From contig CM022673.1 in NCBI GenBank assembly GCA_012295275.1, positions 806,001 through 870,000 of the forward strand: 64,000 bases of DNA. Direction: 5' to 3'. The position numbers and the translations under genes are program-made. This document shows, one piece after another, positions 2,397 to 61,901 of this stretch (position 1 is the stretch's first letter; each line of letters starts with the position of its first letter). The notes under the pieces were generated by a model. It worked only from the letters and a program-made list of their open reading frames with translations. It had not been told where the DNA came from and searched no databases. Source of the DNA: Chrysomallon squamiferum (lineage: Eukaryota > Animalia > Mollusca).

Positions 2397-2436
2397 ATGA
2401 CATTTCTGTGGTTGCTGTTTACTCTCACAGGTTAGT

Positions 2437-2479
<43 letters not shown>

Positions 2480-2918
2480 GCTACTACTACTTTACTACTA
2501 CTACTAAAACTTTACTACTACTACTACTTTACTACTACTACCATCAGCATTACTACTGCTACTATTATTACCGTCATCCTCCTCTTCCTCTTATTTATTT
2601 ATTTATTTATTTGTTTATTCATTTATTTATTGTTTTGAAATTGTAATTGAAATTATTCTCTTATTTCAGTATTTAATTTAATTTATATGTTATTATAAAA
2701 CAGTGGTCCCAGTAATGAGCTTTGGTTGAACGATATTCAAATAAATCGTATTTGTATCCAGTAAATGCATTAAAATCGATTATACGTTTATTATTAAGAA
2801 ACCATTTATTATTATAAAATAAATTTATAATTAACACCATTTATATCGATTTAACATTTCTAATAATAATAATAATGACGATGATGATGATGATGATGAT
2901 GATGATGATAATTGAAGG

Positions 2919-2964
<46 letters not shown>

Positions 2965-4837: not shown

Positions 4838-4870
<33 letters not shown>

Positions 4871-6052
4871 CTCTCTCTTTATATAGATATATAAATATAC
4901 AAACACATACGCTTAGACATCTTTCTTTCTTTTTCCTCATTCATACAAACGTAACCTTCACAAAGGTATTAATAGTTTCAGACGTCAAATCAGTAGAAAC
5001 AAATAAATTAAAGTCGGAAAAACTAGCTTGAGGTTTCCTTCAAACAAATCTCCTTTATTTTAAATGGCTTGCTTCCGAACTGATTTTGAATGCTGTACTT
5101 TAAAAACGAGTAAGTCTTTCGTCTGCTGTGTTGTAGCGAAGACTTCACTTACCTCAGCTGCGTGGAGGAAAGACCCTCGGGAGAATCTTCCTGTGATGGC
5201 GAATCCAGCCAGCCCAAGATGACCATTGAAGCGATGAAAACAGCTAAGGCGGACTGTTAGTTGTAGCATCAGTCACTCACTCATCCACTGACACACTGAC
5301 TGAGAGTCACTCACTCAGTGACCTACTCACTCACTCACTCACTAATTCACATACTGACTTAGAGTAACTTAATCAGTGATTCACTCACTCATCCAGTCAT
5401 TCACTCATTCACTCACCCACTAACTGAGAATAACTGACTCAATGAGTCACTGATTCATTGACCCAGTCACTCACCCAGTCACTCACTCACTCAGTGACTC
5501 ATTCACTCACTCATTATTTATTTTTATATTTTATTATATTTTATTCAAAGACATTCAGTTCACAGAAAACAAAACTTATAAATTAAGCAATAACTATTCA
5601 TGACTAATAGATTGTGGATTAACTATAATAATTGCTTAATAACGATTTTATTATCCCAGATAAATGGATATTTCCTCAGAAATCAATTTCAAGCAAAAAA
5701 GGTGATTGAAATAAATAAATAAATAAATAAATAAAATAAAATAAAATAAAATAAAATAAAATAAAATAAAATTGCAAAATACGCTTTGAATTTCACTAAA
5801 CTAAGCAAGGACACTTAAAGGAATTGTAGATTAAACCCAGAATTTACGACATGGTAACACTGACTGTTGTAGTCACAATACGTTTGGATAACCAATCAAA
5901 GTTTGCGTTATATGACGAACGATCGAGACAGACATTTTTATGGCAAATATTATTTTAATTATGTTCTAGGTGCTTATGCTGGATCATCTGGTATGAGATT
6001 GTCTCTGATCGTACTAGGAACAACTCTGCTTGCGTCTTTCTCGACATTTTGA
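2397..6052 (+). pseudogene. Gene A: six-exon secreted/GPI-anchored cysteine-rich protein gene with a 1-nt frameshift in exon 3 (pseudogene or sequencing error)
   Basis: Exons 2397-2430, 3302-3398, 3749-3889, 4356-4446, 5137-5255, 5970-6052, all GT-AG, phases 1-2-1-2-1. Removing G3834 gives MTFLWLLFTLTVITQCVDGKNCLSCFNDYSTDKSTAKDTKKQCAALQKMAQCLITETGTGCAKTEWTSTSVQFSTGNLTTDLKALGPENCKLDALCTQCQANYQKAIQTRNSNTKDSQKCVEDFTYLSCVEERPSGESSCDGESSQPKMTIEAMKTAKADCAYAGSSGMRLSLIVLGTTLLASFSTF* (187 aa). Same Cys spacing as genes B-E. TATATAAA at 2308; AATAAA near 6101 and 6290. Confidence 0.8.
5270..5515. repeat. Degenerate (CACT)n/(TCAC)n microsatellite in intron 5 of gene A
   Basis: cactcactcactca runs interspersed with cagt/gact variants. 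Confidence 0.8.
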
Positions 6053-17255: not shown

Positions 17256-20926
<3,671 letters not shown>

Positions 20927-26203: not shown

Positions 26204-26555
26204 ATGAAAGCCTTGTTTCTGGTCGTTGTTCTAGCAGGTTAGTTTATGGTACATATTTGTAAAATAAATGTGTGTTTATTTGGAAACGTATAATTCTTTT
26301 CTTTTACAGAGCACACAAAAAAAATAGTTTAAAAAAAAATATATATATTTTATAATACAAAATATTACTTCAAATAATGCTTAATATAAATTATATATTA
26401 TTAATAAGTATAGTTGACATTTTTAATTATTTTTAACAGTGATATGAATAACGCAGTTATTTCTATCGATCAGCATTTATAGCCAATGAATTTATTTTAG
26501 TTTTTTTTTTGTATATCTTGTTCTTCTTCTTTATCTTCTTCTTCTTCTTCTTCTT

Positions 26556-26638
<83 letters not shown>

Positions 26639-27141
26639 TGCTTCTTCTACTGTTGCTGCTGCTACTATTAGTACTAATATACATCAACAGTTTCATGTGG
26701 ATCCATAATAAACTAAATTCAATGGAATTCAATATGTTAAGGATACTATTTCATTTTTTAATTTTTACTGAATTTAGCTGTCGCTGGATCAGCATATTCA
26801 GTCTCAACCTGTGAAGAATGTTATAACGACTTCAACGGATCTACTGATAAATGCAAGTATGAATTTTACTTTCATTATTCATAAACATACTGGTATGATG
26901 TTCTAAATGTAATGTTTCTGAATGAGTTCAAAATTATCCCTCAGCTCATAATAGCTCCTTTTCTATATTATATTTTATTAATTATGTTTCCTAAAATTCC
27001 ATTTAAGATAAAATTGAAATGTTAAATGACCCTAACATTTTTCATTTATAGAAATTGTGCATGTTTATATGTAATAGCAGTATCCTTTCAAAAATAATAC
27101 CTGTCAAAAAATGATATGTAAATAAATTAATTAATTAATAA

Positions 27142-27208
<67 letters not shown>

Positions 27209-27293
27209 ACAAACAAACAAACAAACAAACAGGTTAACTTTATGAATTATTATGTATGGGTGTTATGGTATATATTATGAAAAAACCTGTACG

Positions 27294-27327
<34 letters not shown>

Positions 27328-27640
27328 CATACATACACGATTATTATTCTTTCATTGGAAATTATGGAACACTATAATGAAATATCATAAAGTTCCAAAT
27401 TAACATTGAAAATTTAATATCACCATTCTTCAAAATGAAATTCTGTTTAATAATGTTTTTCGTTTGTTTCTTAGCGCGACTGTAACAGCTGCTACGTGTC
27501 TTCTTGCTGGAACTGATGCCACTTGTACTGGAGATTCAGCCAAGACTGCTGAAAAACAGTTAAAAGATGGCACCAACACAGTGTACAACATTGCAAAAAC
27601 TCAAAACTGTAGTAAGTTTTAATTTTATTTGAAAAAATAA

Positions 27641-27679
<39 letters not shown>

Positions 27680-28762
27680 GAAACAAAACAAAAATAAAAA
27701 AGAAAACAACAAAAACAAAACAACAAAAAGACAACAACATCGTAAGCAGAAAGAATAGTTAAAGTTCGTAACCATTACAGTCAACATTAATAAATATTTT
27801 TGTTTCATCATCGTTAATATCTTCATCAAAATAAGCCAGTCTAACATAAAAATCAAACAAATCCTTAAATTAACATAAATTTGTATTGAGATCACATAAA
27901 TTGTTTGATGAATGCAGAATAACAGTATTGTTTTCTATCTTGCTTCCGATCGTCATCGTCTTGATGGTCATAATCATCATCAGTATTATTATCTTCTTCT
28001 TCACGAACGTCATTAAAATCATCTTCTTGAAGATCATAATTCTCAGTATGAATTACTAAACAGAAAAATACAATGGTTTGATATAATTATGACATTTTGC
28101 ATGCAGACTAATAATAACTAGAGATTGAAATTGGTATTTTATTTTATAATAAGCGTCATAATGATGTAGTTTTCAATCTATCTATTGGTCTACCAATCCA
28201 TCTATCTATCTGTCTATATACATGATTTAAAAACAAATCTATGACCATAAACAGTTCCTCTTTACGAATCCACTTATGAAATGTTAAAGTAATCAACAAA
28301 GTCATTTCATTTATTAATTCAATCCATCACTGACTGAATACGTCAATTTCAGACTTTCTGTGTTATCGGATCAAGTTACAAATGAAATATTTATATGTTT
28401 TACATTACAGGTACTGGAATAACTGATTTGTGTTCATGTCAGGGACAGTATGCTACTAAGGTGGCTTCCAGGACAAACATAACATCAAATGATACCAAGT
28501 GCAAGTAAGATAAATTACGTCATTTATTCCCCCTTTTCAAAAATTTGTAATTAAAATTAAGAATATTGATATATAAACTGGAAAACGAGTTAAGCGTAAA
28601 AAATAATTCCGAACTGACTCATAGATGAATTCAAATAAATATAAACATAATTTACACAACGAAATTCAGCTAAATCAAGACATACACACATACATACATA
28701 CATTATAAGAAACATAAATAGTTTGTGTCAGTTCTTCTATTAACACATTTTTTCTTCTTTTT

Positions 28763-28802
<40 letters not shown>

Positions 28803-29116
28803 CTTCGTATTTGTGTGCTTGTTTATGTATGTATGTATACGAATGTGTGTGAAATTAACAGATTTAGTCAGTATCTATTGGTGGGGTGTTTTTCAATGAA
28901 GCAAAATCGTACGTGATGTGTGTTTGTAACATAGACACTTCAAACACGTGACTGATCAAAATCTCAAACTGATATCAAAACGGAAGGTCACGAATATGAA
29001 TTTTAGATGAATTTTAATTTTAGCACCTAAAACAATTTTAATTGCTAATTTCTAAGAAACTGATAATTTTGACAGCATCGTTTTCTTTATTTCGTTTTAT
29101 ATACAAAGATTCCTAC

Positions 29117-29190
<74 letters not shown>

Positions 29191-30029
29191 TACATACATA
29201 CATAACTGCACGTATAAATGCATGTAAACATAACGAGTGTGTGTAGTTGTTACTGCTTTATGTATTTTTCAATCAAGAAATGTGTTTCCATTATAAATGT
29301 ATAAATGCTTATAAGCATATTTTGTATATGGGGATGTTGCTGATAAGAAACAGATAATGTTAGCTGTATTGTTTTATGTTTTCTTCATTCAGCGAAGCAA
29401 AAGACTACAAGACCTGTGTAGTTGGAAAAGATGCCGCAATGAAAGCCTGTGATGGAACAAAAAAGCAGCCTGATATTCAAACTGAAGCCGAGGCAAAGGT
29501 TACCGAATTGTGTAAGTATTAGTGTTGGCATAATTCTGTGCTGTTTTATTTGCATATTGTATATGGTCTATGTCTTCTTCAGTGAAATTAATAAATCTGC
29601 TTGTGAATAAGTGTTTATGTTTATAAAACGTCTTATATATTTATTTCAAGTTTCTTTTATATTGTTCTGCAGTGTTCAAAACGTTTTTAAATATTTTATA
29701 AGCGTAAGAAAAAAAATAATGTTTTAAATATCTGCTCCGTGCACATTTAAAAGAATTAACGAATGAACAAAGTATTTAATTAAAACAATACATAAACTAC
29801 CAAACTGGAAAAGAGGACGACATTTTATTTATGCTCAAAACGCTAAGTAAGTCATAAAGATATGAATATGTAACAAGTTAAATAAATATATTAAATATCT
29901 TTATCAATATTTATCATACCATCGTCTCACTTGTGTTATTTTCTTGCAGGTTCTTCTTTCGCCGTTGGACTCAAATCAACTTTGATGATCATCTTTGTTT
30001 CTCAGTTTATCGTATTCTGGAAAGTCTAG
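26204..30029 (+). CDS. Gene C: secreted, probably GPI-anchored, two-domain 12-cysteine protein (180 aa), intact
   Basis: Exons 26204-26237, 26778-26856, 27475-27611, 28411-28504, 29393-29511, 29950-30029. Spliced ORF: MKALFLVVVLAAVAGSAYSVSTCEECYNDFNGSTDKCNATVTAATCLLAGTDATCTGDSAKTAEKQLKDGTNTVYNIAKTQNCSTGITDLCSCQGQYATKVASRTNITSNDTKCNEAKDYKTCVVGKDAAMKACDGTKKQPDIQTEAEAKVTELCSSFAVGLKSTLMIIFVSQFIVFWKV*. TATAAA at 26119, AATAAA at 30226. Confidence 0.9.
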
Positions 30030-35729: not shown

Positions 35730-35760
<31 letters not shown>

Positions 35761-36841: not shown

Positions 36842-36937
<96 letters not shown>

Positions 36938-37456: not shown

Positions 37457-37495
<39 letters not shown>

Positions 37496-38960: not shown

Positions 38961-39059
38961 ATTTACGTACGTACGTACATAAGTACAAACATGCATGTAT
39001 GCATACACGCATACATACATACATACATACATACATACATACATACATACATACTTATA

Positions 39060-39173
<114 letters not shown>

Positions 39174-39621: not shown

Positions 39622-39723
<102 letters not shown>

Positions 39724-40788
39724 TAATGGTTAGAAAAGTAGAGGATAAAATAGATCTAAAAAACGAAGAAAAGTCTTAGAGAGGAGTGAGAGAAAGGTGA
39801 GGAAGAAATCTGATGAAATGAAAGACAAACTGACGGACAATACGTGAAATGTATGTCGCAAGATGACGTAATGACACTAGGCCGGGATCTGTACGTGATC
39901 AAAACGCAATGTCAGTCAATTAATCATTATTATCTGAAAGAAAATTTTAAAAATGCAATGTGGAAGGACCTCAAATAGAAGCTAAATGTTTAGTATGAAA
40001 CTGAAAACATAATTCGACGTCTGTCTATCTCGAATTCTTTTTCCAGTAACACAACATGATCTTATTAAGACAAGATGAGAAAAAATTTGGAAATATTCAT
40101 TAGTTTGTAGCTTTTCCTTTAGAAAACACTGACTTGTACTTCATTGTTTTGTTCTTTTAAACTGGACATGCTGTTGCTCTTGAAATTCAGAAAGGTCATT
40201 TGTTAAGTTAATGAAAAATAATCACTGTTGACTTTTCTGTGATAAAATTACTTTTATTTTAACCTATTTGAAATGGTAATTAATCGCCAGCAGACAGTGT
40301 AAAGCAATTGAAATTCTTTGTTCTTAAACAATTAAATCAGTTAAAACTAATTTAATGTCACTTTTACCTTATAATACACTACTCTTGCATTTTGTACATA
40401 AACTGAATTAACAAACAAAAACAAAATCCGCTTAAATGGATCTTTAACCATTTTTGTACATGTTCACATAGCTCAGATTGTAATTGAGTCTCATCGATAT
40501 CTACAATTTGCAGTACATGTTAAATATATTCATTATCTAAATTAATCAGTGCAGTTACGACAACAAATACAAACATCTAATGGCATATTACACGTGAAAC
40601 CTGACATTAAACATCACGATACAGGTCAAGGATGATTCCACGTGATACAGTATTAACTAAACATAGTAAAGCTGGCCATACACTTCTATGTAATACGATC
40701 CGGTTTTAACAGAGCTGTATGATAGCAGTGGGTAATGTCAGATACATGTAAGCTTAATTTTTGCTACTGGTATTATTACCATTATTAC

Positions 40789-40851
<63 letters not shown>

Positions 40852-41397
40852 TATTATTACTATTATTATTATTTTTATTACTATGACTATTATTATTATT
40901 ATTATTATTATTACTATTATTATTATTATTTTGAAACTTACTTAGACACTCAAGACACAATTATGGCTTCTTACATTCTAATGCACAAGGGAGACTACTG
41001 TTAAACGGGATATAGAAGTTCGTTATTTATCTCCCCTGAATTACAGAGCTATAATGACCGTTGAATACGGAGAAAATCGAACATTCCTAACCGGAATAAA
41101 TTTACATAAGAACCAGCATTTGATATGAATACTGGTAATGCACATTTTATTATTATTAATTTTATTATTATTATTATCATTGTTAATTTTGTTGTTACTA
41201 TTATTATTATTAGTAGTAGTAGTAGTAGTAGTAGTAGTAGCAGTTCTAGGAGTCTTGTTTTTGTTGTTGTTATTATTACATAAACATGCACACTAAAACA
41301 CATGTATACAAATAGAGGCTTACAGAAAGATACTTCCGTACATACATACACACATACAGAGAAACAGACAAAATATATATATACGCAAAGACATTAC

Positions 41398-41429
<32 letters not shown>

Positions 41430-41435
41430 CATTAC

Positions 41436-41475
<40 letters not shown>

Positions 41476-41767
41476 TGTAGATTGAAACTAGAATCATATT
41501 TAATTTTATATTTTATTTCACATCTAGCTTAAAACTTTAAAATACATTAATTAAAAAATGGATGTAGCATTCAGTGAATTCAGTTCACTTCATATATCCA
41601 TTATATATATATTTAAGTATAATAAATAAAACTTGGTTACTGCTAGGTCAGGATTAAATAAATTTCAAAACATGTCTATTGGTTCATGATTAGAAACAGA
41701 TGACAAAACAGAAACTCTGAGTTTCAGAGAGAAAAGAGTTCTTCAGTTTGACGTATCAGGACAAACA

Positions 41768-44700
41768 TTAATATTTCAAATAGTTCTGAAACAGAGCCAA
41801 AGCGATCATCATCAGAAACTGCTTGACTCCAACAACGACAGATATTCCTTTATTACCTGAAAACAAAACAGAAAAGTGAAAATGACCTAATAACCAGTCA
41901 GTTATGTGTGTTGCAGTTTAAAAAAAAAGACTTAGTTTAATATACTGAGACGGCATATACTAATTTGCAATTTAAACATCAGATTTCTACCAACAGATTT
42001 TATTTTAATTTTTAAAGTTAGATTTATCTGATAGGAAATCTTTTTCAGTGGAAAACTAATTAAATCAATCGATCAATAAATAAATAAATACTTACAAAAT
42101 TCTGAAACCTTTGCCTCGGAATAAATAACTTATTTCATTTTGGTCTAATGTAATATAAATAAATTGTTAATTTAGAATGTATGAATAAAACTACATAGGA
42201 CTGACTATGCTAACACTAATACTTACACAATTTTGTTACCTCTTCCTCGGCTTCAGTTTTAATATCAGGCTGCTTTTTTGTTCCATCACAGGCTTTCATT
42301 TCGACATCTTTTCCAACTACACAGGTCTTGTAGTCTTTTGCTTCGCTGAATGAAGAAAACATAAAACAATACAGCTAACATTATGTGTTTTTCATAAGCA
42401 ACATCCCCATATAAAAAATATGCTTATATGTATTGATACATATATAACAGAGACACATGTCTTGTAGTATTTTGTGTTCGTGATTGGCACACATGAAACT
42501 GTAACACCTACACAAACCCATGTTTACATGCATTTATTCGTACTGTTATGTATATATTTATGTATGTATGTATATATGTATGTATGTATGTATGTATATA
42601 TGTATGTAGGAATGTTTCTGTGTGTGTTTATATATCGCTGAGTTGGGAAAACGAAAATTATCATTTTTTAGAAATTAGCAATTTAAACTATTATAGTGAT
42701 TATACAAACATACAGAGAGACAGACAGACAGAAAAAGAAATAAACAGACAATAAGCGTAAATTAAAATCTTCTTACGTGCATTTAGTTTCGTTTGATGTC
42801 GAGCTTGTTCTGGAAGCTATCTTAGTAGCATATTGTCCTTGACATGAACACAAATCAGTTATTCCAGGATCTGTAACGCAAAATAATCACAGTGATGATG
42901 AGAATGATCAAAACGGTGTGATAGTAATAATGATCATCATCATCATGACGATATGATCATAAAAATGAAGTTGATGATTGTAGGAAGGATTACTGGAAAC
43001 ATTATTATTATTTTTCATTTAATTTTCATTATAAAATGTATGTTACTTAACATAAAATGATAAGGATAATCAAAACGGTTTGTGATGATGATGACGAAGA
43101 CGTTATAAAGAAGAAGAAGAAGAAGAAGATGATGATGATGATAATGGTATGATCATGATAATTAAAATGATGATCAAGACGGTATGATCTAGATAGTATG
43201 ATCGTGGTAATGAAGAAATTGATGATCACCATATGGTCTTAATAATAATGATGATGATCGTCATAACAGCGTGATCAAGCATGACTATATGATTGTAAAA
43301 ATGAAGATGATGATTATTAGTGAAAACAATATTATTATTTTCCATTTAATTTTTATTATAAAACGCATCGTTATCTTAATAAAAAATGATATTAGTTTAA
43401 GGACATCTGATGACCGATAAGAATTAATATGATGACGATAAGGAAGAGGAAAACCAATGATTTATGTAATTTTTCTATGATATTTTACCACAGTTTTTAG
43501 ATTTTGCAATGTTGTACACTGTTTTGGTGCCATCTTTTAACTGTTTTTCAGCAGTGGTTGATGATTGTCCAGTACAAGTGTCATCAGTTCCAGCAAGAAG
43601 ACATGTAGCAGCTGTTGTAGCCGCTCTGAGAAAGAAACGAAAAATTATTTAATAGAAGCTTGTCAGATTTTCTCTGTGAAGTTCTGTCAGTATGAACAGA
43701 TGTTACATTATTACAAATACGTGTTTTAGAGTGTATACGTGTATGATTGTACATAAGTGCGTGCGTGCGTGCGTGCGTTTGTGTATAATAGCGAGGAATT
43801 ATTAGTTCAAAATATGAAAGATAACATCTAAAATGTACATACATAATAATTCATGAAGAATTTATTTTCTTTCTTTTTTTACTTTTTTTTTAGAGATTTA
43901 TTTTTATTATTTAGCAAAAGGCTACGCTGATATTTCTGTTATTTAAAAAAATATATTATCTGTATAGATGGGACATTTTACATGTTAATTTAAAAACAAA
44001 TAATTATAGTAAAAGAAATTATTAATTTACAAACGAAGATAATAAGACCCACGATATACATACACAGATTATCGTAAAAACATGTTTGTAAATGATGAAA
44101 ATAGAAAGACGTACGTGCAGTAGTCAACATATGTAACAGAGAAAGTGTCAACACAAGCGTCACAGGTAGTCGTCTTTGACTGTGCTGACCCAGTTAGAAC
44201 TAAATTAGCGAAAACATAAAAAAATAAAAATTTGTCGCTTGATCAGTATGTTGTGCATCAGATACATTAAAATCTGTTCACAAAAGGATATCTTGAGTCA
44301 TTTCTCTTTACTAAGAATCCCTGTGATGCACAAGAAGTATACTACTACTACTACTACTACTACTACTACCACTACTACCACTACTACTACTACTAATAAT
44401 AATAGTAATAACATTTATGAACCGATTTTATGGATGACATCAGCCAATTAAATCTAAGATGAATAGACTCGGTTTAGAACAGAAAAACTAAAATTTCACT
44501 TTTCTATCTACTCTATTATTTGTGAAAAAACAACAACACGACTCCAATAGTAAACACAGTCGAAAATGAGCAGATGCAGTCAGACGGTTGTATTGAACAC
44601 AATATTCTCGTAGTACATTACTGCTATTCACAGGAATGGTAACTTATGAAATATAATTATTAATATTAAAATAAGAATTTTAATACTACAATGAAAATAT

Positions 44701-44787
44701 AATGATAATATACAGTCATAGATGTGCATTACAGATATGTACAATAAACTAACCTGCTAGAACAACGACCAGAAACAAGGCTTTCAT
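41768..44787 (-). CDS. Gene D: secreted, probably GPI-anchored, two-domain 12-cysteine protein (185 aa), intact, minus strand
   Basis: Exons in transcription order: 44787-44754, 44199-44115, 43625-43489, 42870-42777, 42345-42227, 41856-41768. Spliced ORF: MKALFLVVVLAVLTGSAQSKTTTCDACVDTFSVTYVDYCTAATTAATCLLAGTDDTCTGQSSTTAEKQLKDGTKTVYNIAKSKNCDPGITDLCSCQGQYATKIASRTSSTSNETKCTEAKDYKTCVVGKDVEMKACDGTKKQPDIKTEAEEEVTKLCNKGISVVVGVKQFLMMIALALFQNYLKY*. Confidence 0.9.
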
Positions 44788-44919
44788 CTTTGACTTCTTC
44801 TTGGCTTTTCCTTCCAACGTCTTGAAATGTGTCCGTGGTATGATTTGTGTATCTCAGTTTCACCCATTTATACAGCTCTGTTGCCAAAACAAAATTATTA
44901 TCGTCAAGAGGAGGTACGT
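44788..44919 (-). promoter_or_regulatory. Core promoter/5'UTR of gene D
   Basis: Reverse complement of the block upstream of gene E, with TATAAA (tttata at ~44867-44872 on +). Confidence 0.6.
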
Positions 44920-46555
44920 AATATTCATTTCTTTTAAAGATTGTTTGGCAACGTGTAAATAAACAGCAAAGTGTCAGGTGGTATATCTATTAGCCGAAAA
45001 TAATGACTGGAGGAAAAAGTGATGAACATGCGCAAACTTTTCATAAATAACAAACCACGATTGGTAGAGTTAATGATGGGAGGAGCTATCAGTTACTTCA
45101 TTGTCTGAGACTGATGGTAGCCATGGACGACACTGTGGCGGGATCTATGCTACATTTTTTCTCACAACTATTCTTTTACGTATTAATATTTCATTTACTT
45201 AACATCTCTTCTTTGTGAATTTCAAAAGTAATACCCAACATATTTTAACGGAATAACTACAAACTAATAATTACTGTCTCATCAGCAAATTTTTGTCTCA
45301 TCAGCTCTTAATAAGATCATATTTTATTACAGATAAAAAAAAAAGAAACGAAAAAAGAAATTCGAATAATGACTTATTTAAAATTACCTTGCAGGTAATT
45401 ATGATTTATTTAACATATTCTTTACAAACTTTTACTGTCAGTGAGTTTTTATCATGTACAGATCCCCGCTTAGTGTCATTTGATATTTTATCGCAACACG
45501 CTTCAAAAGCGTTTTTTAAATAAGCAGCTTTAAAAAGTCGCCAACGTGAGACGTTTATTTCACTTTTAGTCGTGTGGTTCTTCTTTTACACGTAATACTT
45601 TTGTGGTAGTGAACCGATGCAAAAGATTTTGTGTATTGCTATCAAAGGCTGATTACAGCATTTAAATAATAATTAAGTTCGGTCGGAATAACCTTGAGCA
45701 ATGTACTTATCTTCACTACATAAGTTTTAAAAATTAATTCCCAAATAATAAAATATTTCTCTCTATCAGATGGGTAAAATATGCATACATACATACAAGC
45801 ATGCACAAATGGATTCATACATACATACATACTAACATACATACATACATACATACATACATACATACATACATACACATATATACATACATACGTATAC
45901 ATGCATACATACGTACATACATATTCATACATACATACATATACATACATACATACATATACATACATACATATACATACATACATATACATACATACAT
46001 ATACATACGTACATATACATACATACATAGATACATACATACATATACATACGTATATGATTCACACATTTCTCGACGGCTGAACGGTAACGTCGTCCAT
46101 CTTCTATTTGCAGGTAGCTGTGTGCCACACGTTTGAGTCTTTTCATGCGCATCTGACGGGTTTGTGATGTCGTGGTTGGAATTTGTTCTCCTCCGCTAGT
46201 GAGTTCGTGAATGTTGTCTATGTACAGAGTCTAATCAGACGTACATAAAACAAGGAATATTCAAATCTTAAAATACATAGATACATTTATTTATGCATAT
46301 ACATAAATACAAATATACATGGATATATACAGATATAAATAATAATAATTATTATATAAATATGTTCATTACATCTTATGTGAAAAATAAACAGGCCAGA
46401 AATTAAAATGCGAACAGGATAAAGAAGATAAATAGTTTAAAACTGTTTCCCACTGGGAGTTATGTCCTGTACTTTGGTTAAGTTGCTATTCTTCTTCTTC
46501 TTCTTTTTTATGATTATGACTATGACTATGATTATGATTATGATTATGATTATGA

Positions 46556-46614
<59 letters not shown>

Positions 46615-47298
46615 TTAATGGTTACAAAAGTAGAGGATAAAATATATTTCAAAAACGAAGAAATCTGATGAAATGAAACACAGACGGACGGAAGATACGT
46701 GATATATATGTCGCAAGATGTCTTACATCATTAAGGTGCCATGTCAGTACAGGCTGGTAAAGAATATGTTAAATACGTCATTATCAAGTTCGGTTGGCAT
46801 AACCTAGAGCAAGTGTACTAATCTTCAGTACAGAAGTCTGACAAAAAGTTTCTAATTTATTAACGTCAATTCCCAAATAATAAAACATTCCTCAATAAAT
46901 TAAATCTGTTTTTCTTCCTCCCTCTGTGTGAATTGGGTAAAATATGAACACTATATATATACATATACACACATAAATATATATAGAAACATTCTAACGT
47001 ACATACAAATATACATACATATATACATACATACATACATACATACATACATACATACATACATAGATACATATATAAATATACACATATAAAGCATATA
47101 TGGATACACGCATAACTGATGAGTCCACGAATTCTGGTTATGTTATTCTTATTTTGCTAATGAACGGCGTCCTTCGTGCAAAGCGATGGTTACCTCGGTG
47201 ATAGACCAACCTTTCTTAAGTTTGTCTCGACGGCTGAACGGTAACGTCGTCCACGTTCTTCTTGCGGGTGAGGATCTATGCATGTATACGTATGTATG

Positions 47299-47329
<31 letters not shown>

Positions 47330-48420
47330 TAGTATGTATGTATGTATGTTAGTATATATGTATGAATCCATTTGTGCATGCTTGTATGTGTGTATGCATA
47401 TATACTGTTCATATTTTACCCATCTGATAGAGAGAAATATTTTATTATTTGGGAATTAATTTTTAAAACTTATGTAGTGAAGATAAGTACATTGCTCAAG
47501 GTTATTCCGACCGAACTTAATTATTATTTAAATGCTGTAATCAGCCTTTGATAGCAATACACAAAATCTTTTGCATCGGTTCACTACCACAAAAGTATTA
47601 CGTGTAAAAGAAGAACCACACGACTAAAAGTGAAATAAACGTCCTACGTGGGCGACTTTTTGAAGCTGCTTATTTAAAAAACGCTTTTGAAGCGTGTTGC
47701 CATAAAATATCAAATGACACTAAGCGGGGATCTCTACATGATAAAAACTCACTGTCAATAAAAGTTAATAAACAATATCTTAAATAACTGATTATTATCT
47801 GAAAGAAAATTTTTAATATGTAGTGTGGAAGGTCCTCAGATAGAAGCAGAATGTTTACTATTAAACTCTCATATAATTTTTTTTTCACAGTAATTTATCT
47901 CGACATGCGTCTTTCTAGAATACGTTTTCTTTAAACAAATATGATGTTATTAAGAGCTGATGAGAAAGAAATAAGACAGTATATATTAGTTTGTAATTCT
48001 TCCTTTAAAATATGTTGGCTATTACTTTTGAAATTCAGAAAGAAGAGATGTTAAGTAAACGAAAAATTAATACGAAAAAGAATAGTTGTGAAAAAAATGT
48101 AGTATAGATCCCGCCACCCTTGGCATCTGTGTTTACACAGTGTCGTCCATGGCTATGAAAATAAAAACGCAATTACCATACTCCCGCCCCTTAACATTTC
48201 TGTTTACAGTTTCGCCCATAGCTACCATCAGACTCAGACAATGAAGTAACTGATAGCTCCTCCCATTATTAACTCAACCATTGGTGGTTTGTTATTTATG
48301 AAAAGTTTGCATGTTCATCACTTTTTCCTCCAGTCAGTCTTTTCGCCTAAGACAGATACCACCTGACACTTTGCTGTTTATTTACACGTTGCCAAACAAT
48401 CTTTAAAAGAAATCAATATT
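44920..48420. repeat. Composite repeat modules between head-to-head genes D and E (largely palindromic)
   Basis: 44920-45310 is the reverse complement of ~47950-48420, and 45400-45910 of ~47280-47800. Confidence 0.8.
46070..46272 (+). mobile_element. tRNA-derived SINE copy
   Basis: tctcgacggctgaacggtaacgtcgtcc...gtttgagtc...catctgacgggtttgtgatgtcgtg...cagagtctaatcagacgtacataa. Partial copies at ~47224-47272 and 54335-54446. Confidence 0.6.
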
Positions 48421-48552
48421 ACGTACCTCCTCTTGACGATAATAATTTTGTTTTGGCAACAGAGCTGTATAAATGGGTGAAACTGAGATACACAAATCAT
48501 ACCACGGACACATTTCAAGACGTTGGAAGGAAAAGCCAAGAAGAAGTCAAAG
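48421..48552 (+). promoter_or_regulatory. Core promoter/5'UTR of gene E
   Basis: gctgTATAAAtggg at ~48468; same block as upstream of genes C and D. Confidence 0.6.
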
Positions 48553-51366
48553 ATGAAAGCCTTGTTTCTGGTCGTTGTTCTAGCAGGTTAGTTTATTGTA
48601 CATATGTGTAATGCACATCTATGACTGTATATTATTATCATTATATTTGCATCGTAGTATTAAAATTCTTATTTTAATATTAATAATTATATTTCATAAG
48701 TTACCATTCCTGTGAATAGCAGTAATGTACTACGAGAATATTGTGTTAATACAACCGTCTGACTTCATCTGCTCATTTTCGACTGTATTTACTATTGCAG
48801 TCGTGTTGTTGTTTTTTCACAAATAATAGAGTAGATAGAAAAGTGAAATTTTAGTTTTTCTGTTCTAAACCGAGTCGATTCATCTTAGATGTCACCCATA
48901 AAATCGGTTCATAAATGTTATTACTATTATTACTATTATTGTTGTTTTTATTAGTAGTAGTAGTAGTAGTAGTAGTATATTTCTTGTGCATCACAGGGAT
49001 TCTTAATAAAGAGAAATGACTCAAGATATCCTTTTGTGAACAGATTTTAATGTATCTGATGTACAACATACTGAACATATTTCTTTTTCTTTCGTTTTTT
49101 CTCCAATTTAGTTCTTACTGGATCAGCACAGTCAGAGACGACTACCTGTAAGACTTGTATTAAAGATTTCACTAATACAACTAATGCAAAAAAGTGCACG
49201 TACGTCTTTCTATTTTCATCATTTACAAACAAGTTTTTACGATGATCTGTGTATGTTTTTGCTGAAATATATATATATATATATATTAGATGTACATTTT
49301 AGATGTTATCTTTTATATTTTGAACTAATAATTCCGTGCTATTATACACAAACGCACGCACGCACGCACGCACAGATGTACAATCATACACATATACACT
49401 CTAAAACACGTATTTGTAATTATGTAACATCTGTTGATACTGACAGAACTTCACAGAGAAAATCTGACAAGCTTCTATTAAATAATTTTTCATTTCTTTC
49501 TCAGAGACGAGGCTACAACAGCTGCTACATGTCTTCTTGCTGGAACTGATGACACTTGTACTGGACAATCAGAATACACTGCTGAGAAACAGTTAAAAAG
49601 TGGCACCGACACATTGTACAACAATGCAAAAACTAAACTCTGTGGTAAAATATCATAGAAAAATTACATAAATCATTGTTTTTCCTCTTCCTTATCGTCA
49701 TCATATTAATTCTTATCAGTCATCAGATGTCCTTAAACTAATATCATTTTTTATTAAGATAACGATGCGTTTTATAATAAAAATTAAATGGAAAATAATA
49801 ATATTGTTTTCAGTAATCCTTCCCATAATCATCATCTTCATTTTTACAATCATATAGTCATGCTTGATCACGCTGTTATGACGATCATCATCATTATTAT
49901 TAAGACCATATGGTCATCATCAATTTCTTCATTACCACGATCATACTATCTTGATCATACAGTCTTGATCATCATTTTCGTTATCATGATCATACCATTA
50001 TCATCATCATCATCTTCTTCTTATTATTATTCTTTATAACGATCATGCGTCTTCTTCATCATCATCACAAACCGTTTTGATTATCCTTATCATTTTATGT
50101 TAAGTAACATACATTTTAGAATGAAAATTAAATGAAAAATAATAATATTGTTTTAAATAATCCTTCCCATAACCATCATCTTCACTTTTATGACCATATC
50201 GTCATCATGATGATGATTATTATTACGATCACATCGTTTTGATCATTCTCATCATTACTGTGATTATTTTGCGTTACAGATACTACAATAACTGCTTTGT
50301 GTTCATGTCAAGGAGAATATGCTACTAAGGTGGCTTCCAGAACAAGCACGACATCAAAGGAAACTAAATGCACGTAAGAAGATTTTATTTTACGCTGACT
50401 GTCTGTTTATTTCTTTATCTGTCTGTCTGTCTGTCTCTCTGTATGTCTGTATAATCACTATAATAATTTAAATTACTCATTTCTAAAAAATGATAATTTT
50501 TGTTTTCCCAACTCAGCGATATATAAACACACACAGAAACATTCCTACATACATATATACATACATGCATACATAAATATACACATAACAGTACGAATAA
50601 ATGCATGTAAACATGTGTGTAGTTATTGTTTCATGTGTGCCAATCACGAACACAAAATACTACAAGACATGTGTCTCTGTTATAGATGTATAAATACATA
50701 TAAGCATATTTTTTATATGGGGATGATGCTGATAAAAAACAGATAACGTTAGCTCTATTGTTTTATGTTTTCTTCATTCAGCGAAGCAAAAGCCTACAAG
50801 ATCTGTGTCTCTGAAAATGATGCCGCCATGAAAGCCTGTGATGGAACAAAAGAGCAGCCTGATATTAAAACTGAAGCCGAGGCAAACGTTACAGAATTTT
50901 GTAAGTATTAGTGTTAGCACAATTCTGTGCTGTTTTATTCATACATTCTAAATTAATAATTTATTTATATTACATTAGTCCAAAATGAAATAAGTTATTC
51001 CGAGGCAAAGGTTACAGAATTTTGTAAGTATTTATTTATTTATTATTTATTTATTTATTGATCGATTGATTTAATTAGTTTTCCACTGAAAAAGATTTCC
51101 TATCAGATAAATCTAATTTTAAAAATTAAAATAAAATCTCTTCTTAGAAATCTGATATTTATATTATAAATTAGTATATTCTATCTCAGTATATTAAACT
51201 AAGTCTTTTTTTTTAAACTGCAACACACATATCTGACTGGTTATTAAGTCATTTTCACTTTTCTGTTTTGTTTTCAGGTAATAAAGGAATCTCTGTCGTT
51301 GTTGGAGTCAAGCAGTTTCTGCTGATGATCGCTTTGACTCTGTTTCAGAACTATTTGAAATATTAA
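48553..51366 (+). CDS. Gene E: secreted, probably GPI-anchored, two-domain 12-cysteine protein (187 aa), intact
   Basis: Exons 48553-48586, 49112-49199, 49505-49644, 50280-50373, 50782-50900, 51278-51366. Spliced ORF: MKALFLVVVLAVLTGSAQSETTTCKTCIKDFTNTTNAKKCTDEATTAATCLLAGTDDTCTGQSEYTAEKQLKSGTDTLYNNAKTKLCDTTITALCSCQGEYATKVASRTSTTSKETKCTEAKAYKICVSENDAAMKACDGTKEQPDIKTEAEANVTEFCNKGISVVVGVKQFLLMIALTLFQNYLKY*. Confidence 0.9.
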
Positions 51367-51663
51367 TGTTTGTCCTGATACGTCAAACTGAAGAACTCTT
51401 TTCTCTCTGAAACTCAGAGTTTCTGTTTTGTCATCTGTTTCTAATCATGAACCAATAGACGTGTTTTGAAATTTATTTTATCCTGACCTAGCAGTAACCA
51501 AGTTTTATTTATTATACTTAAATATATATATCTAATGGATATATGAAGTGAACTGAATTCACTGAATGCTACATCCATTTTTTAATTAATGTATTTTAAA
51601 GTTTTAAGCTAGATGTGAAATAAAATATAAAATTAAATATGATTCTAGTTTCATTTCTATATA

Positions 51664-51713
<50 letters not shown>

Positions 51714-53459
51714 GTAATGTCTTTGCGTATATATATATTTTGTCTGTTTCTCTGTATGTGTATGTATGTACGGAAGTATCTTTCTGTAAGTCTCTATTTG
51801 TATATATGTGTTTTAGTGTGCATGTTTATGTAATAATAACAACAACAAAAACAAGACTCCTAGTACTGCTACTACTACTGCTACTACTACTACTACTACT
51901 ACTACTACTAGTACTAATAATAATAATAATAATAATAGTAACAACAAAATTAACAATGATAATAATTATAATAAAATTAATAATAATAAAATGTGCATTA
52001 CCAGTATTCATATCAAATGCTGGTTCTTATGTAAATTTATTCCGGTTAGGAATGTTCGTTTTTCTCCGTGTTCAACGGTCATTATAGCTCCGTAATTCAG
52101 GGGAGATAAATAACGAACTTCTATATCCCGTTTAACAGTAGTCTCCCTTCTGCATTAGAATGTAAGAAACCATAATTGTGTCTTGAGTGTCTAAATAAGT
52201 TTCGAAATAATAATAATAATAGTAATAGTAATAATAATAATAATAATAGTAATAATAATAATAATAATAATAGTAATAATAGTAATAATACCAGTAGCAA
52301 AAATTAAGCTTACATGTATCTGACATTACCCACTGCTATCATACAGTTCTGTTAAAACCGGATCGTATTACATAGAAGTGTATGGCCAGCTTTAATCGCC
52401 TATGTTTAGTTAATATTGTATCACGTGGAATCATCCTTGACCTGTATCGTGATGTTTAATGTGAGGTTTCACGTGTAATATGCCAATAGATGTTTGTATT
52501 TGTTGTCGTAACTGCACTGATTAATTTAGATAATGAATATATTTAACATGTACTGCAAATTGTAGATATCGATGAGACTCAATTACAATCTGAGCTATGT
52601 GAACATGTACAAAAATGGTTAGAGATCCATTTAAGCGGATTTTGTTTTTGTTTGTTAATTCAGTTTATGTACAAAATGCAAGAGTAGTGTATTATAAGAT
52701 AGAGGTGACATTAAATTAGTTTTAACTGATTTAATTGTTTAAGAACAAAGAATTTCAATTGCTTTACACTGTCTGCTGGCGATTAATTACCATTTCAAAT
52801 AGGTTAAAATAAAAGTAATTTTATCACAGAAAAGTTAACAGAGATTATTTTTCATTAACTTAACAAATGACCTTTCTGAATTTCAAGAGCAACAGCATGT
52901 CCAGTTTAAAAGGACAAAACAATGAAGTACAAGTCAGTGTTTTCTAAAGAAAAAGCTACAAACTAATGAATATTTCCAAATGTTTTTCTCATCTTGTCTT
53001 AATAAGATCATGTTGTATTACCGAAAATAGAATTCGAGACAGACGGACGTCGAATTATGTTTTCAGTTTCATACTAAACATTTAGCTTCTATTTGAGGAC
53101 CTTCCACATTGCATATATAAAATTTTCTTTCAGATAATAATGATTAATTTACTGCCATTGCGTTTTGATCATGTACAGATCCCGGCCTAGTGTCATTACG
53201 TCATCTTGCGACATACATTTCACGTATCGTCCGTCCGTCTATCTTTCGTTTCATCAGATTTCTTCCTCAGCTTTCTGTCACTCCTCTCTAAGACTTCGTT
53301 TTTGAGATATAAATTATCCTCTACTTTTCTCACCATTAAATATATATATATGTATGTATATAAGTATGTATGTATGTATGTATGTATGTATGTATGCGTG
53401 TATTCATACATGCATGTATGTATTTATATAAACATCTATGTTTATATGTACATACGTAC

Positions 53460-54005
53460 GTAAATTAACCTGCATGTTTATGAACTTGCATTTATGCACA
53501 GACTGACATAACTGTTTGCTGCATATGCTTTGAATATCTTTTTTAACTCAGATGTTATTCTAAAGAACCCACAGAGAAAACCTGGTTTAATATTCACTAT
53601 GTATGTGTGTATGATATTTGTGTATGCATATATGTATGTAGGTATGTGTGTATATATGTATGTATGTAAATATGTATACTGTTCATATTTTACCCAATTC
53701 ATAGAGAGGAAGAAACAAACAAAAAAGACTTACTTTATTGAGGAACCTTTTATTATTTGGGAATTAATTTAAATAAAAGTACAAGAATTTTTGTATAATT
53801 TATGTACTGAAGATTAGTACAGTTGCTCCAGGTTATTCCGACCTAACGTAATTATTATTTAAGGAATTTACTCATGCATTTTACATATATCTATCTTTGT
53901 TTGTTTGTTTGTATGTACGTATGTATGTATGTATGTATGTATGTGTATGAATAATAGATCTGTAAAATAAGATGTACAAATATGAATATTACTAGTGAAA
54001 TAATG

Positions 54006-54052
<47 letters not shown>

Positions 54053-57093: not shown

Positions 57094-60000
57094 ATGAAAG
57101 CCTTGTTTCTGGTCGTTGTTCTAGCAGGTTAGTTTTATTGAACATATTTGTAATGCATCTATGACTGTATATTATCATTATATTTGCATTGTAGGATTAA
57201 AATTTTATTTTAATATTAATAATTATATTAATAAGTTATCATTCCTGTGAATAGCTGTAATTTACTACGAGAATATTTTGTTCAATACAACCGTCTGACT
57301 GCATCTGCTCATTTTCGACTCTATTTACTATTGCAGTCGTTGTTGTTTTTTTCACAAATAATAGATAGAAAAGTGAAATTTTAGTTTTTCTGTTCTAAAC
57401 CGAGTCCATTCATTTTAGATGTCACCCATAAAATCGGTTCATAAACGTTATTACTATTATTACTATTATTATTAGTAGTAGTAGTACTAGTAGTATTAGT
57501 ATTAGTATTAGTACACTTTTTGTGCATCACAGGATTTTAGTAAAGAGAAATGACTCAAGATATTGTTGTTTTTGTGAACATATTTTTTAATGTATCTGAT
57601 GTACAAACACACTGATCAATTTGATATTATTTCTTTTTCTTATTTTGTTTCTTCCAATTTAGTTCTTACTGGATCAGCACAATCAGAGACGACTACCTGT
57701 GAGCCTTCTGTATCAAAACGTCACTGGTAACTGCTGATAAGAAGTGCACGTACGTCTTTCATTTTCATCATTTACGAACATGTTTTTATGATGCTCTGTG
57801 TATGTTTCTGCTGAAATAATTATATATATATGTATAAATCGTAGGTCTTATTATCTACGTTTCTAATTTAATAATTTCCTTTTACTATAGTTATTTGTTT
57901 TTAAATGAATATGTAAAATGTCCTGTCTATACAGATAATATATTTTTCTATATAACAGAAATATCAGCATATCCTTTTGCTAAATAATAAAATAACCCTC
58001 TAAAACAAAATAAAATAAAATAAAATAAAATAAATTGTTCATGAATTATTATGTATGTACATTTTAGATGCCATCGTTTATATTTTGTACTAATAATTCG
58101 CGCTATTATACAGAAACGCACGCAACTTAATGCACAGATGTACAAGCATACACATATACACGCCAAAACACGTATTGGTAATATGTAACATCTGTTCATA
58201 CCTGGACAGAAATTCACAGAGAAAATCCAACAAGCTTCTATTAAATAATTTTTCATTTCTTTATCAGAGCGGTTACAACAGCTACATGTCTTTCTTGCTG
58301 GAACTGATGCCACTTTGTACTGGACAATCAACCAACACTGCTGAAAAACAGTTAAAAGATGGCACCGACACAGTGTACAAAATATCACAAACTAAAACAT
58401 GTGGTAAAAATATCATAGACAAATTACATAAATCATAGTTTTTCCTCTTTACTTATCGTCATCATATTAAGTCTTTATCAGTCATCAGATGTCCTTTAAA
58501 CTAATATCATTTTGTTAAGATAACAATGCGTTTTATAATGAAAATTAAATGGAAAATAATAATATTGTTTTCTTGAATCCTCATAATCATCATCTTCAGC
58601 TCACAATCACATAGTCATGCCATCACGCTGTTATGACGATCATCACTGGCTATTTATTAAGCATCTCATATGGTCATCATAATTTCACATCTTGATCATA
58701 CCGTCTTGGATCATTATTGCTGACTATGAATATACTGTTAATACTCATCATCATTTTCTTCTTCTTCTTCTTTATAATGGATCATGCGTCTTCGCCACAT
58801 TATCATCTCAAACCGTTTTATTTATCCTTATCATTTTATGTTAAGTAACAATTTTATAAGAATATTGTGAATGAAAAATTATAATAGTTGTTTTCAGTAT
58901 TCTCCTTCTCCTATAATCACTACTCACTCTCTATGATGATGATGACTATTATTATCACACCGTTTTGATCATTCTCATCATCACTGCTATTATTATTTTG
59001 TTACAGATCCTGAATAACTGATTTGTGTTCATGTCAAGGAGAATATGCTACTAAGGTATTTCAGAACAAGCTCCAACATCAAAGGAAACCAAATGCGTAA
59101 GAAGATTTTAATTTACGCTGACTGTCTGTTTATTTCTTTTTCTGTCTGTCTATCTCTGTATATCTGTATAATACATACTATAATAATTTAAATTGCTAAT
59201 TTCTAAAAAATGATAATTTTGTTTTCCCAATGCCATGATATATAAACACACACAGAAACATTCCTAAACATACATATATACATACATACATATATACATA
59301 CATACATACATACATACATACATTATACATACATACATATATCTAACTGTACGAATAAATGCATGTTAACATCGGTGTGTGTGGAAGTTGTTATTGTTTC
59401 ATGTGTGCTGTGATCACGAACACAAAATACTACCAAGACATGTCTCTGTTATATATTTTGTATATGGGGATGTTGCTGATAAAAAAAACAGATAATGTTA
59501 GCTGGTATTGTTTCATGTTTTCTTCATCCTTGAGCAAAAGCCTACAAGACCTGTGTAGCTTTGGAAAAGATGCCGCCATGAAAGCCTGTGATGAAAAACA
59601 CTGCAGCCTGCTGTGAAAATCCGGAAGCCGAGGCAGGTTGCAGGCAGAATGTAGCATTAGTGTTACCCATAATTCTGTGCTGTTTTATTCATACATCTAA
59701 ATTAATAATTTATTTATATTACATTAACCAAAATGAAAAGTTATTTAGTTCAGGAAAAAGGCTTACATAATTTTCTAAGTATTTTATTTATTTATTATTT
59801 TATGTATTTACTGATGATTGATTTATTTTGTTTTCACCTGCAAAAATTTCTTGTCAGATAAGTATAGTTTTAAAAATTTAAAATAAAATCTGATATTTAA
59901 ATTGTAAATTAGCATGCCATCTCAGTATATTAAACTAAGTCTTTTTTTTTTTTTTAATCTGCAAACACGTAACTGGACTGGTTATTAAGTCATTTTCACG

Positions 60001-60117
60001 TTTCTGTTTTCAGGTGTCTAAGAGAATCAAGATAACGCAGGAGTTTTGTCGTTGCTGGAGCCGCAGTTTCTTATGAGATCGCTTTTGGCTCTGTTTCGAA
60101 ATATTTTGAAATATTAA
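57094..60117 (+). pseudogene. Gene F: paralogue of D/E with many small indels (apparent pseudogene; more likely low-accuracy contig end)
   Basis: Exon homologues at 57094-57127 (intact MKALFLVVVLA), 57663-57749, 58268-58403, 59007-59096, ~59533-59650 and 60014-60117. Frameshifts occur from exon 2 onward, and scattered small indels also occur in the introns leading up to the N gap. Confidence 0.75.
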
Positions 60118-60467: not shown

Positions 60468-60508
<41 letters not shown>

Positions 60509-61307: not shown

Positions 61308-61901
61308 CGAAGCAAAAGCCTACAAGACCTGTGTAGCTGGAAAAGATGCCGCCATGAAAGCCTGTGATGGAAAAACACTGCAGCCTGCTATTAAAACTGA
61401 AGCCGAGGCAAAGGTTACAGAATTATGTAAGTATTAGTGTTACCATAATTCTGTGCTGTTTTATTCATACATTCTAAATTAATAATTTATTTATATTACA
61501 TTAGTCCAAAATGAAAGAAGTTATTTATTCCAAGGAAAAGGTTACATAATTTTCTAAGTATTTATTTATTTATTATTTATGTATTTACTGATCGATTGAT
61601 TTATTTTGTTTTCCACTGCAAAAAATTTCTTGTCAGATAAGTATAGTTTTAAAAATTAAAATAAAATCTGATATTTAAATTGTAAATTAGTATATGCCAT
61701 CTCAGTATATTAAACTAAGTCTTTTTTTTTTTTTTTAATCTGCAACACACGTAACTGACTGGTTATTAAGTCATTTTCACGTTTCTGTTTTCAGGTGTTC
61801 AAGAGAATCAAGATAACGCAGGAGTTTCTGTCGTTGTTGGAGTCAAGCAGTTTCTTATGATGATCGCTTTGGCTCTGTTTCAGAAATATTTGAAATATTA
61901 A
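61308..61901 (+). CDS. Gene G (partial): exons 5-6 of a family member; 5' part lost at the assembly gap
   Basis: Exon 5 at 61308-61426 (EAKAYKTCVAGKDAAMKACDGKTLQPAIKTEAEAKVTEL) and exon 6 at 61795-61901 (CVQENQDNAGVSVVVGVKQFLMMIALALFQKYLKY*). Frame and GT-AG sites are intact. Confidence 0.85.

Follow-up and report, generated by a model that had tools for sequence, protein, structure and literature searches.

Gene pair D and E

The window analyzed here, a stretch of 64,000 nucleotides (nt) from contig CM022673.1 of the mollusc Chrysomallon squamiferum, contains at least five members of a family of small cysteine-rich protein genes (A, B, C, D and E, plus F/G). Its G+C content is about 30%, it is dense in microsatellites, and it contains one gap of 200 N (60708-60907). 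Our main subjects, D and E, are intact six-exon paralogues arranged head to head, D being encoded on the minus and E on the plus strand, with their ATGs 3.77 kb apart (Table 1). In both genes the predicted introns have GT-AG borders and phases 1,2,1,2,1, the open frames encode 185 and 187 amino acids with 12 cysteines each, and 143 of 185 residues are identical between the two proteins. Exon models of these and all other copies are predictions from DNA. The original prediction for this locus took the DNA after exon 5 to be a 3' untranslated region; it is most likely intron 5 followed by a sixth coding exon. This exon starts behind an AG acceptor in the right phase, encodes a hydrophobic tail and is retained in six copies (A, B, C, D, E, G).

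Replacement changes are concentrated in the mature-protein exons

The codon alignment of exons 3-5 contains 28 codons that differ in the encoded amino acid and 3 that differ silently, out of 116. The original prediction had counted 27 and 3: its figures for exon 4 (7 versus 0) and exon 5 (12 versus 2) stand, whereas exon 3 has 9 replacement codons, the ninth lying beside a 3-nt indel, versus 1 silent-only codon. The multi-nucleotide changes that it listed (TCA>GAA, ACC>TAC, GAT>AGT and AAC>CTC) are all present; two-base differences occur in 10 of the 28 changed codons, and all 12 cysteines are kept. Exon mismatches are distributed over the three codon positions as 16/15/10. Exons 3-5 have 266.7 nonsynonymous (N) and 81.3 synonymous (S) sites, with proportions of differing sites of 0.139 (pN) and 0.049 (pS) and corrected divergences of 0.153 (dN) and 0.051 (dS). 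Because about 3.3 N sites are available per S site, the replacement excess over the neutral expectation is approximately 3-fold and not nine-fold. Exon 2 is the most divergent (12 versus 3 codons plus a 3-nt indel; dN 0.35, dS 0.26), although its alignment is uncertain and poor in the 3' half. Exon 6 has 2 replacement codons and 1 silent-only codon.

The non-coding DNA of the pair provides the yardstick. Across the five introns 114 of 2210 aligned columns differ (0.052; 88 of 1881 away from gaps), plus indels, and intron 2 is 305 nt long in one copy and 489 nt in the other. All non-coding DNA compared differs at 171 of 4230 positions, and this divergence is even, at 0.02-0.06 across eight segments. 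Exon 1, promoter and introns had been described as nearly identical: exon 1 is (0/34 differences), the 300 nt upstream of it differ at 11 of 298 positions, and the introns are only about 95% identical. When exons were compared with overlapping non-coding windows, the mismatch counts of exon 3 (16/137) and exon 5 (17/119) were reached by 0 of 3142 and 0 of 3286 windows, respectively, whereas 8.4% of windows reached that of exon 4 (9/94); the three counts together (42 mismatches) were reached by the sum of three random windows in 1 of 200,000 draws. By this test the excess is upheld in exons 2, 3 and 5 and not in exon 4 alone.

Tests for selection

The comparison on which the original prediction had staked its case, exon versus intron divergence, came out in its favor: 37 of 267 N sites in exons 3-5 differ versus 114 of 2210 intron sites (p 5e-7). 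In contrast to N sites, S sites diverge as introns do (4/81 versus 114/2210, p 1.0). Likewise, 4-fold degenerate sites (2/43) match non-coding divergence, whereas 0-fold degenerate sites (30/228) do not (p 6e-8). In a joint likelihood codon model calibrated on the introns, the ratio dN/dS (omega) of exons 3-5 is 2.8-3.1 (p 1.8e-7 to 1.6e-5) with 0-35% double-base events; exons 2-5 give 3.3-3.6, all 185 codons together 2.6-2.8 (p <=1.4e-6), and exons 1 and 6 only 0.4-0.5. The acceleration is thus limited to the mature-protein exons 2-5, and the signal and tail exons do not take part in it.

Site models (M1a versus M2a) were fitted to C, D, E and G, the last for exon 5 only, on a star tree. For exons 2-5 p was 0.0002, 0.003 and 0.016 with 0, 5 and 10% double hits, and for exons 3-5 it was 0.009, 0.07 and 0.21; M2a places about 25-29% of sites at omega 5. 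Copy F was excluded from every dN/dS test because of its indels. Copy G, the third recent one, repeats the pattern: all three pairs of D, E and G have a p-distance of 0.051-0.054 in intron 4 and of 0.10-0.14 in exon 5, and codon changes private to one of these genes comprise 11 replacement and 2 silent ones (5 tied columns dropped). Intron 5 offers a same-sequence control in the form of a 29-nt non-coding duplicate (end of exon 5 plus donor), which has 1 difference in 29 between D and E versus 6 in 29 in the coding copy (one-sided p 0.051). This duplicate retains a GT donor in D and E, where it might serve for cryptic splicing or as a conversion template. When C is taken as outgroup, E receives 16 of the residue changes and D 7, with 5 unresolved (p 0.09). 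GC-biased conversion was considered as a cause and rejected, as changes from A/T to G/C (13) do not outnumber the reverse ones (17).

When exons 3-5 are tested on their own, omega exceeds 1 under single-hit models (3.0-4.7, p 0.004-0.043), and the signal weakens once double-base mutations are allowed. Support for selection therefore comes mainly from the intron calibration. The inference of positive or diversifying selection made in the original prediction stands as supported, with a smaller effect than a ratio of 27:3 implies and with gene conversion as a complication; the arms race that it invoked is an interpretation of this result.

Public-run contigs and allelic variation

We compared positions 41700-51450 with contigs of four public sequencing runs (X1, X2, X4 and X5), which represent at most four samples from three studies, one of which may be the source of the window; the results below refer to the best 32 of 3892 contig pieces and 40 of 252 difference rows. 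Among the pieces listed, D exon 5 is partly covered with 0 differences in X2, X4 and X5 (108 of 119 nt in X4), and the first 46-56 nt of E exon 4 are covered with 0-1 differences by X1, X2 and X4. D exon 2 is covered, again among the pieces listed, by one X1 contig with 1 difference and one X5 contig with 5. A variant at 44134, present in both runs, turns Thr34 of D into Ala (read by hand). The X5 differences in D exon 2 (44115-44199) are spread over a 203-nt piece, one of those listed being a replacement, and two runs have no cover there. Allelic hypervariability of D exon 2 is possible. In X1, X2 and X5 the piece over exon 1 is approximately 3-4 times as deep as the gene-specific pieces; depth is not copy number, but this ratio is in line with several copies sharing exon 1.

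Gene conversion within the family

Several comparisons with paralogue C indicate conversion. Over the promoter and exon 1, C differs from D and from E at only 3 of 164 nt, while its introns hardly align with theirs. Differences private to C amount to 39 of 276 in intron 4 versus 2 of 119 in exon 5 (p 5e-5), and the topology favored by informative sites flips from 5:1 in intron 4 to 0:3 in exon 5 (p 0.048). In the D/E comparison, introns diverge slightly more at sites no further than 50 nt from exons 2-5 (28/395) than elsewhere (86/1815, p 0.06). Conversion is the simpler reading of the comparisons with C, although purifying selection on C could explain part of them.

Predicted protein architecture

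In a 15-residue window, hydropathy in B, C, D and E reaches 2.5-2.6 at the N-terminus and 2.1-2.3 at the C-terminus and does not exceed 1.25 in between. Together with the conservation of both ends, this predicts a signal peptide and a tail for a glycosylphosphatidylinositol (GPI) anchor. Small residues follow the last cysteine. Because the very end of D and E is a short stretch of polar residues, a short transmembrane anchor may possibly take the place of GPI. The phase pattern and the cysteine layout suggest two modules of six cysteines each, encoded by exons 2+3 and 4+5. Structure models of exon 3 and exon 5 each have a helix, a cysteine loop and a second helix, at low confidence (predicted local distance difference test, pLDDT, 51.7 and 50.8). 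We infer from exon phases and these weak models that the protein may be a two-module helical scaffold held by disulphides. Within it, 15 of the 28 changes in exons 3-5 alter charge while the net charge stays at -3 to -4, and C, D and E have 5, 1 and 2 N-glycan sequons, respectively, at different places. On a helical wheel of exon 3, 4 of the 8 D/E changes (65, 73, 76 and 84) lie opposite an A67/L71/V78/A82 stripe, a suggestive placement.

Diversifying selection and its alternatives

We consider it fairly probable that the exons of D and E record diversifying selection on the ectodomain of a predicted lineage-specific surface recognition protein, acting amid gene conversion; selection is our inferred cause of the replacement excess. 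In this model, D and E are recent inverted duplicates within a tandem family of six-exon genes. The proteins that they encode, 185-187 residues long, have 12 fixed cysteines; a helical structure and a GPI anchor that places them on the cell surface are predicted. The exposed part would have been driven apart to bind a changing outside partner: the cysteine scaffold would hold the fold while surface residues, charge and N-glycan sites change. Occasional conversion would keep the promoter and signal exon alike and move patches between copies, and copies would be born and lost. The likeliest role would be cell-surface recognition, whether of a microbe, of a parasite or host, of self versus non-self, or of a gamete.

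A number of points weigh against this interpretation. The splicing of D and E is predicted from DNA and their expression presumed, the GPI anchor is predicted from hydropathy and conservation, and the fold comes from exon models with a pLDDT of about 51; the profile match between the two putative modules is weak (probability 1.7%, E 0.03). The tests involve only three or four sequences on a star tree, exons 3-5 were picked after the fact, and conversion, as indicated here, can bias tests of this kind. For exons 3-5 alone, p rises to 0.035 with 5% and 0.063 with 10% double hits, a share from which upward significance is lost; it ranges from 0.035 to 0.37 over all double-hit settings, and with a free double-hit rate it is 0.10-0.31. 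The entire coding sequence, tested without introns, gives 0.06, 0.12 and 0.018 under three frequency models, not significant in two of them. Introns have 12 adjacent mismatch pairs versus 5.9 expected; thus, double-base events do occur here, and this puts their real share near 5%. Compared with C, omega in exons 3-5 is 0.7-0.9 for D and 1.0-1.4 for E, none significant. Finally, merging mismatches within 2 nt leaves the exon excess in place (28 events in 350 nt of exon versus 143 in 4230 nt of non-coding DNA, p 9e-5), but merging within 10 nt abolishes it (11 versus 90 events, p 0.25), so the changes are clustered.

Because of the evidence for conversion, a scenario of the kind known from the genes for the red and green opsins of humans, duplicates under conversion with peaks of divergence (PMC3924837), becomes a real contender, albeit an unlikely one. 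D and E would then be older than their introns suggest: introns, promoter and flanks would have been homogenised while selection kept exons 2-5 distinct, and omega need not exceed 1. Like the opsin genes, D and E are close neighbors with converted patches and divergence mostly in exons. The conversion indicated between C and D/E in promoter and exon 1, in exon 5 and in the topology switch fits this scenario, as do the slightly raised intron sites near exons 2-5 and the dS of exon 2. On the other hand, it predicts a raised exon dS, whereas the 4/81 of exons 3-5 (95% interval 0.014-0.12) is not above the introns and would have a probability of 0.009 of being this low or lower if pS equalled pN. 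Neither the evenness of the non-coding divergence nor the number of exons affected, four and not one, is what the opsin type would lead one to expect.

The same selection may instead have acted on a soluble protein, for example a mucus, haemolymph or gland factor, if translation ended shortly after entering intron 5 (C-K-Y-stop). When the exon 5 donor is read through, the twelfth cysteine is obtained and a stop follows within 1-6 codons in each of A, B, C, D, E and G; secreted venom and sperm proteins, moreover, typically evolve in this way. However, the cysteine is partly automatic, because any phase-1 donor after T reads as Cys, and exon 6 with its tail is kept in six copies, even in those three (A, B, C) that have ceased to align as DNA; we regard a soluble product as quite unlikely.

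Relaxed constraint combined with multi-nucleotide mutations and small numbers, without positive selection, is improbable. Multi-nucleotide mutations have been reported to mimic selection (10.1101/165969), and the two-base codons, together with the failure of exons-only tests under free double hits, speak for this view. Yet neutrality caps exons at the intron rate, and even with one event per changed codon exons 3-5 exceed it (28/267 versus 114/2210, p 0.001). Moreover, frames, splice sites and all cysteines are intact, and the signal and tail exons are slow.

No more credible, in our opinion, is the import of segments, in which short exon patches copied from more distant paralogues, located in the window or elsewhere, would have shuffled old variants into D and E. 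Viper three-finger toxin genes have a similar pattern of accelerated exons, for which an exchange of segments (ASSET) has been proposed (PMC2474615). The clustering of changes, the 3' half of exon 2, which can barely be aligned across C, D, E and F, the identity of D with C at 16 of the 28 changed residues in exons 3-5, and the end of E exon 5, which matches its own intron copy at 28 of 29 positions, are all compatible with import. Imported segments should, however, carry silent changes, of which exons 3-5 have few; in exon 5, the majority of differences occur in a single copy, and none of the window's copies was seen to be a donor for the E-specific states.

It is very improbable that D and E represent a double assembly of alleles or that their differences are sequence errors: error-rich sequence does occur nearby (copy F), but the frames of D and E are clean, their alignment of 1464 columns has a single one-base gap, introns and cysteines would not have been spared by errors, and D- and E-specific pieces match public-run contigs with 0-1 differences, both genes being represented in X1, X2 and X4.

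The locus matters in two ways. Replacement divergence that outruns introns usually marks molecular conflict (immunity, parasitism, fertilisation or venom), and this family, which no database or profile search made here with single exons could name, offers a concrete lead to a recognition system, as yet unknown, of the source animal. It also makes a compact natural test case, comprising recent paralogues, the slow paralogue C and a non-coding copy of part of exon 5, for telling positive selection apart from gene conversion and multi-nucleotide mutation. A more specific proposal is tentative and, in our estimate, doubtful: that these genes represent undescribed lineage-specific GPI-anchored variable recognition proteins (receptors in immunity, self/non-self discrimination or gametes, or else surface antigens) with a duplicated two-exon helical module, a promoter and signal exon kept shared by conversion, diversification of ectodomain and glycan sites by selection and patch exchange, and further allelic variation in exon 2.

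Other family copies and surrounding DNA

Coordinates of all features are collected in Table 1. The family is both old and recently expanding: the distant intact paralogue B, whose protein is only 28-31% identical to C, D and E, shares the six exons, phases and the 12 cysteines. Paralogue A is either a pseudogene or carries a sequence error; a partial copy of its exon 3, 94% identical, lies at 649-802. The end of copy F (59112-60707) repeats the DNA beyond the N gap (60908-62513). The 36 one-base gaps in the F/G overlap, versus 1 in D/E, mark F as error-rich; probably, F is error-rich gap-filling sequence, and F and G are one gene broken at the assembly gap. In G exon 6 (61795-61901), the spacer before the hydrophobic tail is six residues longer than in D and E.

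Table 1. Family copies and associated features in the window
Feature	Position	Strand	Basis or remark
Inverted duplication carrying D (39722-45910) and E (47274-53340)	39722..53340		self-BLAST pieces, 90-92% identity
D exon 1 (predicted signal peptide start); TATAAA 85 nt upstream of ATG	44754..44787	-	identical in C, D, E, F
D exon 2 (predicted signal peptide end, Cys 1-3; 3' half hypervariable)	44115..44199	-	codon alignment; public-run contigs
D exon 3 (Cys 4-6)	43489..43625	-	codon alignment
D exon 4 (Cys 7-9)	42777..42870	-	codon alignment
D exon 5 (Cys 10-11, first base of Cys 12)	42227..42345	-	codon alignment; public-run contigs
D exon 6 (hydrophobic C-terminal tail, predicted GPI signal)	41768..41856	-	overlooked in the original prediction
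E exon 1; TATAAA 85 nt upstream	48553..48586	+	
E exon 2	49112..49199	+	codon alignment
E exon 3	49505..49644	+	codon alignment
E exon 4	50280..50373	+	codon alignment; public-run contigs over its start
E exon 5	50782..50900	+	codon alignment
E exon 6 (hydrophobic tail)	51278..51366	+	
29-nt non-coding copy of exon 5 end and donor in intron 5	E 51000..51028; D 42091-42119; G 61530-61558	+ (E)	
Paralogue C, intact, 180 aa, 12 Cys	26204..30029	+	exon 1, promoter and exon 5 close to D/E; most introns not
Distant paralogue B, intact, 176 aa, 12 Cys, six exons, phases 1,2,1,2,1	17256..20926	+	
Distant paralogue A; exon 1 candidate; exon 3 141 nt, out of frame	2397..6052	+	
Copy F, many 1-nt indels	57094..60117	+	58 gaps, 36 of 1 nt, in F/G overlap; D/E 12 and 1
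Copy G, exons 5 and 6 beyond the 200-N gap; reading frames clean	61308..61901	+	

A unit of several hundred bases lies upstream of D, E and F and also occurs in several gene-less copies (32439-39093, 45372-48379 and 53585-56613), some of which end just short of the promoter; we read these as debris of duplication and loss. Between D and E, at approximately 46070-46290, there is an interspersed high-copy repeat with relatives near 18480-18660, 31000-31260 and 34960-35230; in the public-run contigs its bins have 40-180 times the depth of neighboring bins. By eye it contains boxes like those of tRNA promoters and is possibly a short interspersed nuclear element; a scan against Rfam gave 0 matches. 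Elsewhere in the window, 34 tandem copies of a 29-nt unit (86% matches) form an array at 24882-25867 that ends about 340 nt upstream of the ATG of C, and an inverted repeat of about 1 kb (10124-11131 versus 14497-15527; 70% identity, microsatellite-rich) lies between A and B.

Comparison with known proteins and gene families

All homology searches used single exons of 23-46 residues; the absence of relatives is therefore weak evidence. Word-seeded protein searches with E exon 3, an alignment of five exon 5 sequences and an alignment of four exon 3 sequences, restricted to longer proteins, returned nothing at E 1 or 10. The two matches from an exhaustive search with E exon 3 were repetitive proteins without the cysteine pattern and were rejected. 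Neither of two exon peptides had a usable match in the ESM Atlas, and none of 21 exon peptides, too short to give much power, reached the Pfam cut-off (best E 0.034 and 0.061, unrelated families). In the PDB, exon 5 had no match, and two phycobilisome linker repeats were rejected, as no stretch of them passed alone. The literature search, mostly outside subscription journals, found no description of a GPI-anchored Cys-rich tandem family under selection in molluscs or other invertebrates. The family appears undescribed.

By architecture, these proteins were compared with several known groups. Ly6/uPAR three-finger proteins have a beta-sheet domain ending in CCxxxxCN; membership was rejected, as B, C, D and E have no adjacent cysteines and the exon models are helical, at low confidence. 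DUF19/CPG4-type proteins combine two helical Cys-rich modules in small secreted or anchored invertebrate proteins, an architecture like that predicted for D and E; none of the 21 single-exon peptides scanned had a Pfam match. The CRASP of Achatina achatina is described as a soluble, helical, disulphide-held, taxonomically restricted protein of about 18 kDa with 10 cysteines (PMC4596865). It is similar in size and helicity, and its spacing C-9-C-6-C-28-C resembles C-9-C-8-C-27-C in E; membership was rejected, as there are 12 cysteines here versus 10, a second motif of 8-10-20 versus 11-8-10, and a hydrophobic tail. Molluscan CRNF, described as soluble, with about 123 residues and 11 conserved cysteines (PMC3966541), differs in its length, in the number of its cysteines and in its tail.

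As an evolutionary pattern, all this is well known and not new. Abalone lysin and sp18 are small invertebrate proteins encoded in tandem arrays, with recurrent duplication and positive selection (PMC9022041), and in these respects they are like D and E; however, they are soluble sperm proteins with known receptors, whereas the D/E family has 12 cysteines and a hydrophobic tail, and the PDB search gave no sequence similarity of the exon peptides to abalone acrosomal proteins. Similarly, D and E evolve like the viper three-finger toxin genes without belonging to them. A close parallel is provided by the phospholipase A2 (PLA2) genes of habu venom, in which introns and untranslated DNA are reported to be more conserved than the exons of the mature protein (PMC7285919). 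On the one hand, D and E encode an unrelated protein with a predicted membrane anchor and not a secreted enzyme, and a link to venom or a gland has no support here. On the other hand, they share with the venom PLA2 genes a conserved signal exon, changes over all codon positions and a dN at or above dS. The signal exon has 0 differences in 34 nt among C, D, E and F; introns diverge by 0.052 versus 0.10-0.14 for exons 3-5 and more for exon 2; and dN exceeds the neutral intron rate in all models (p <=2e-5).

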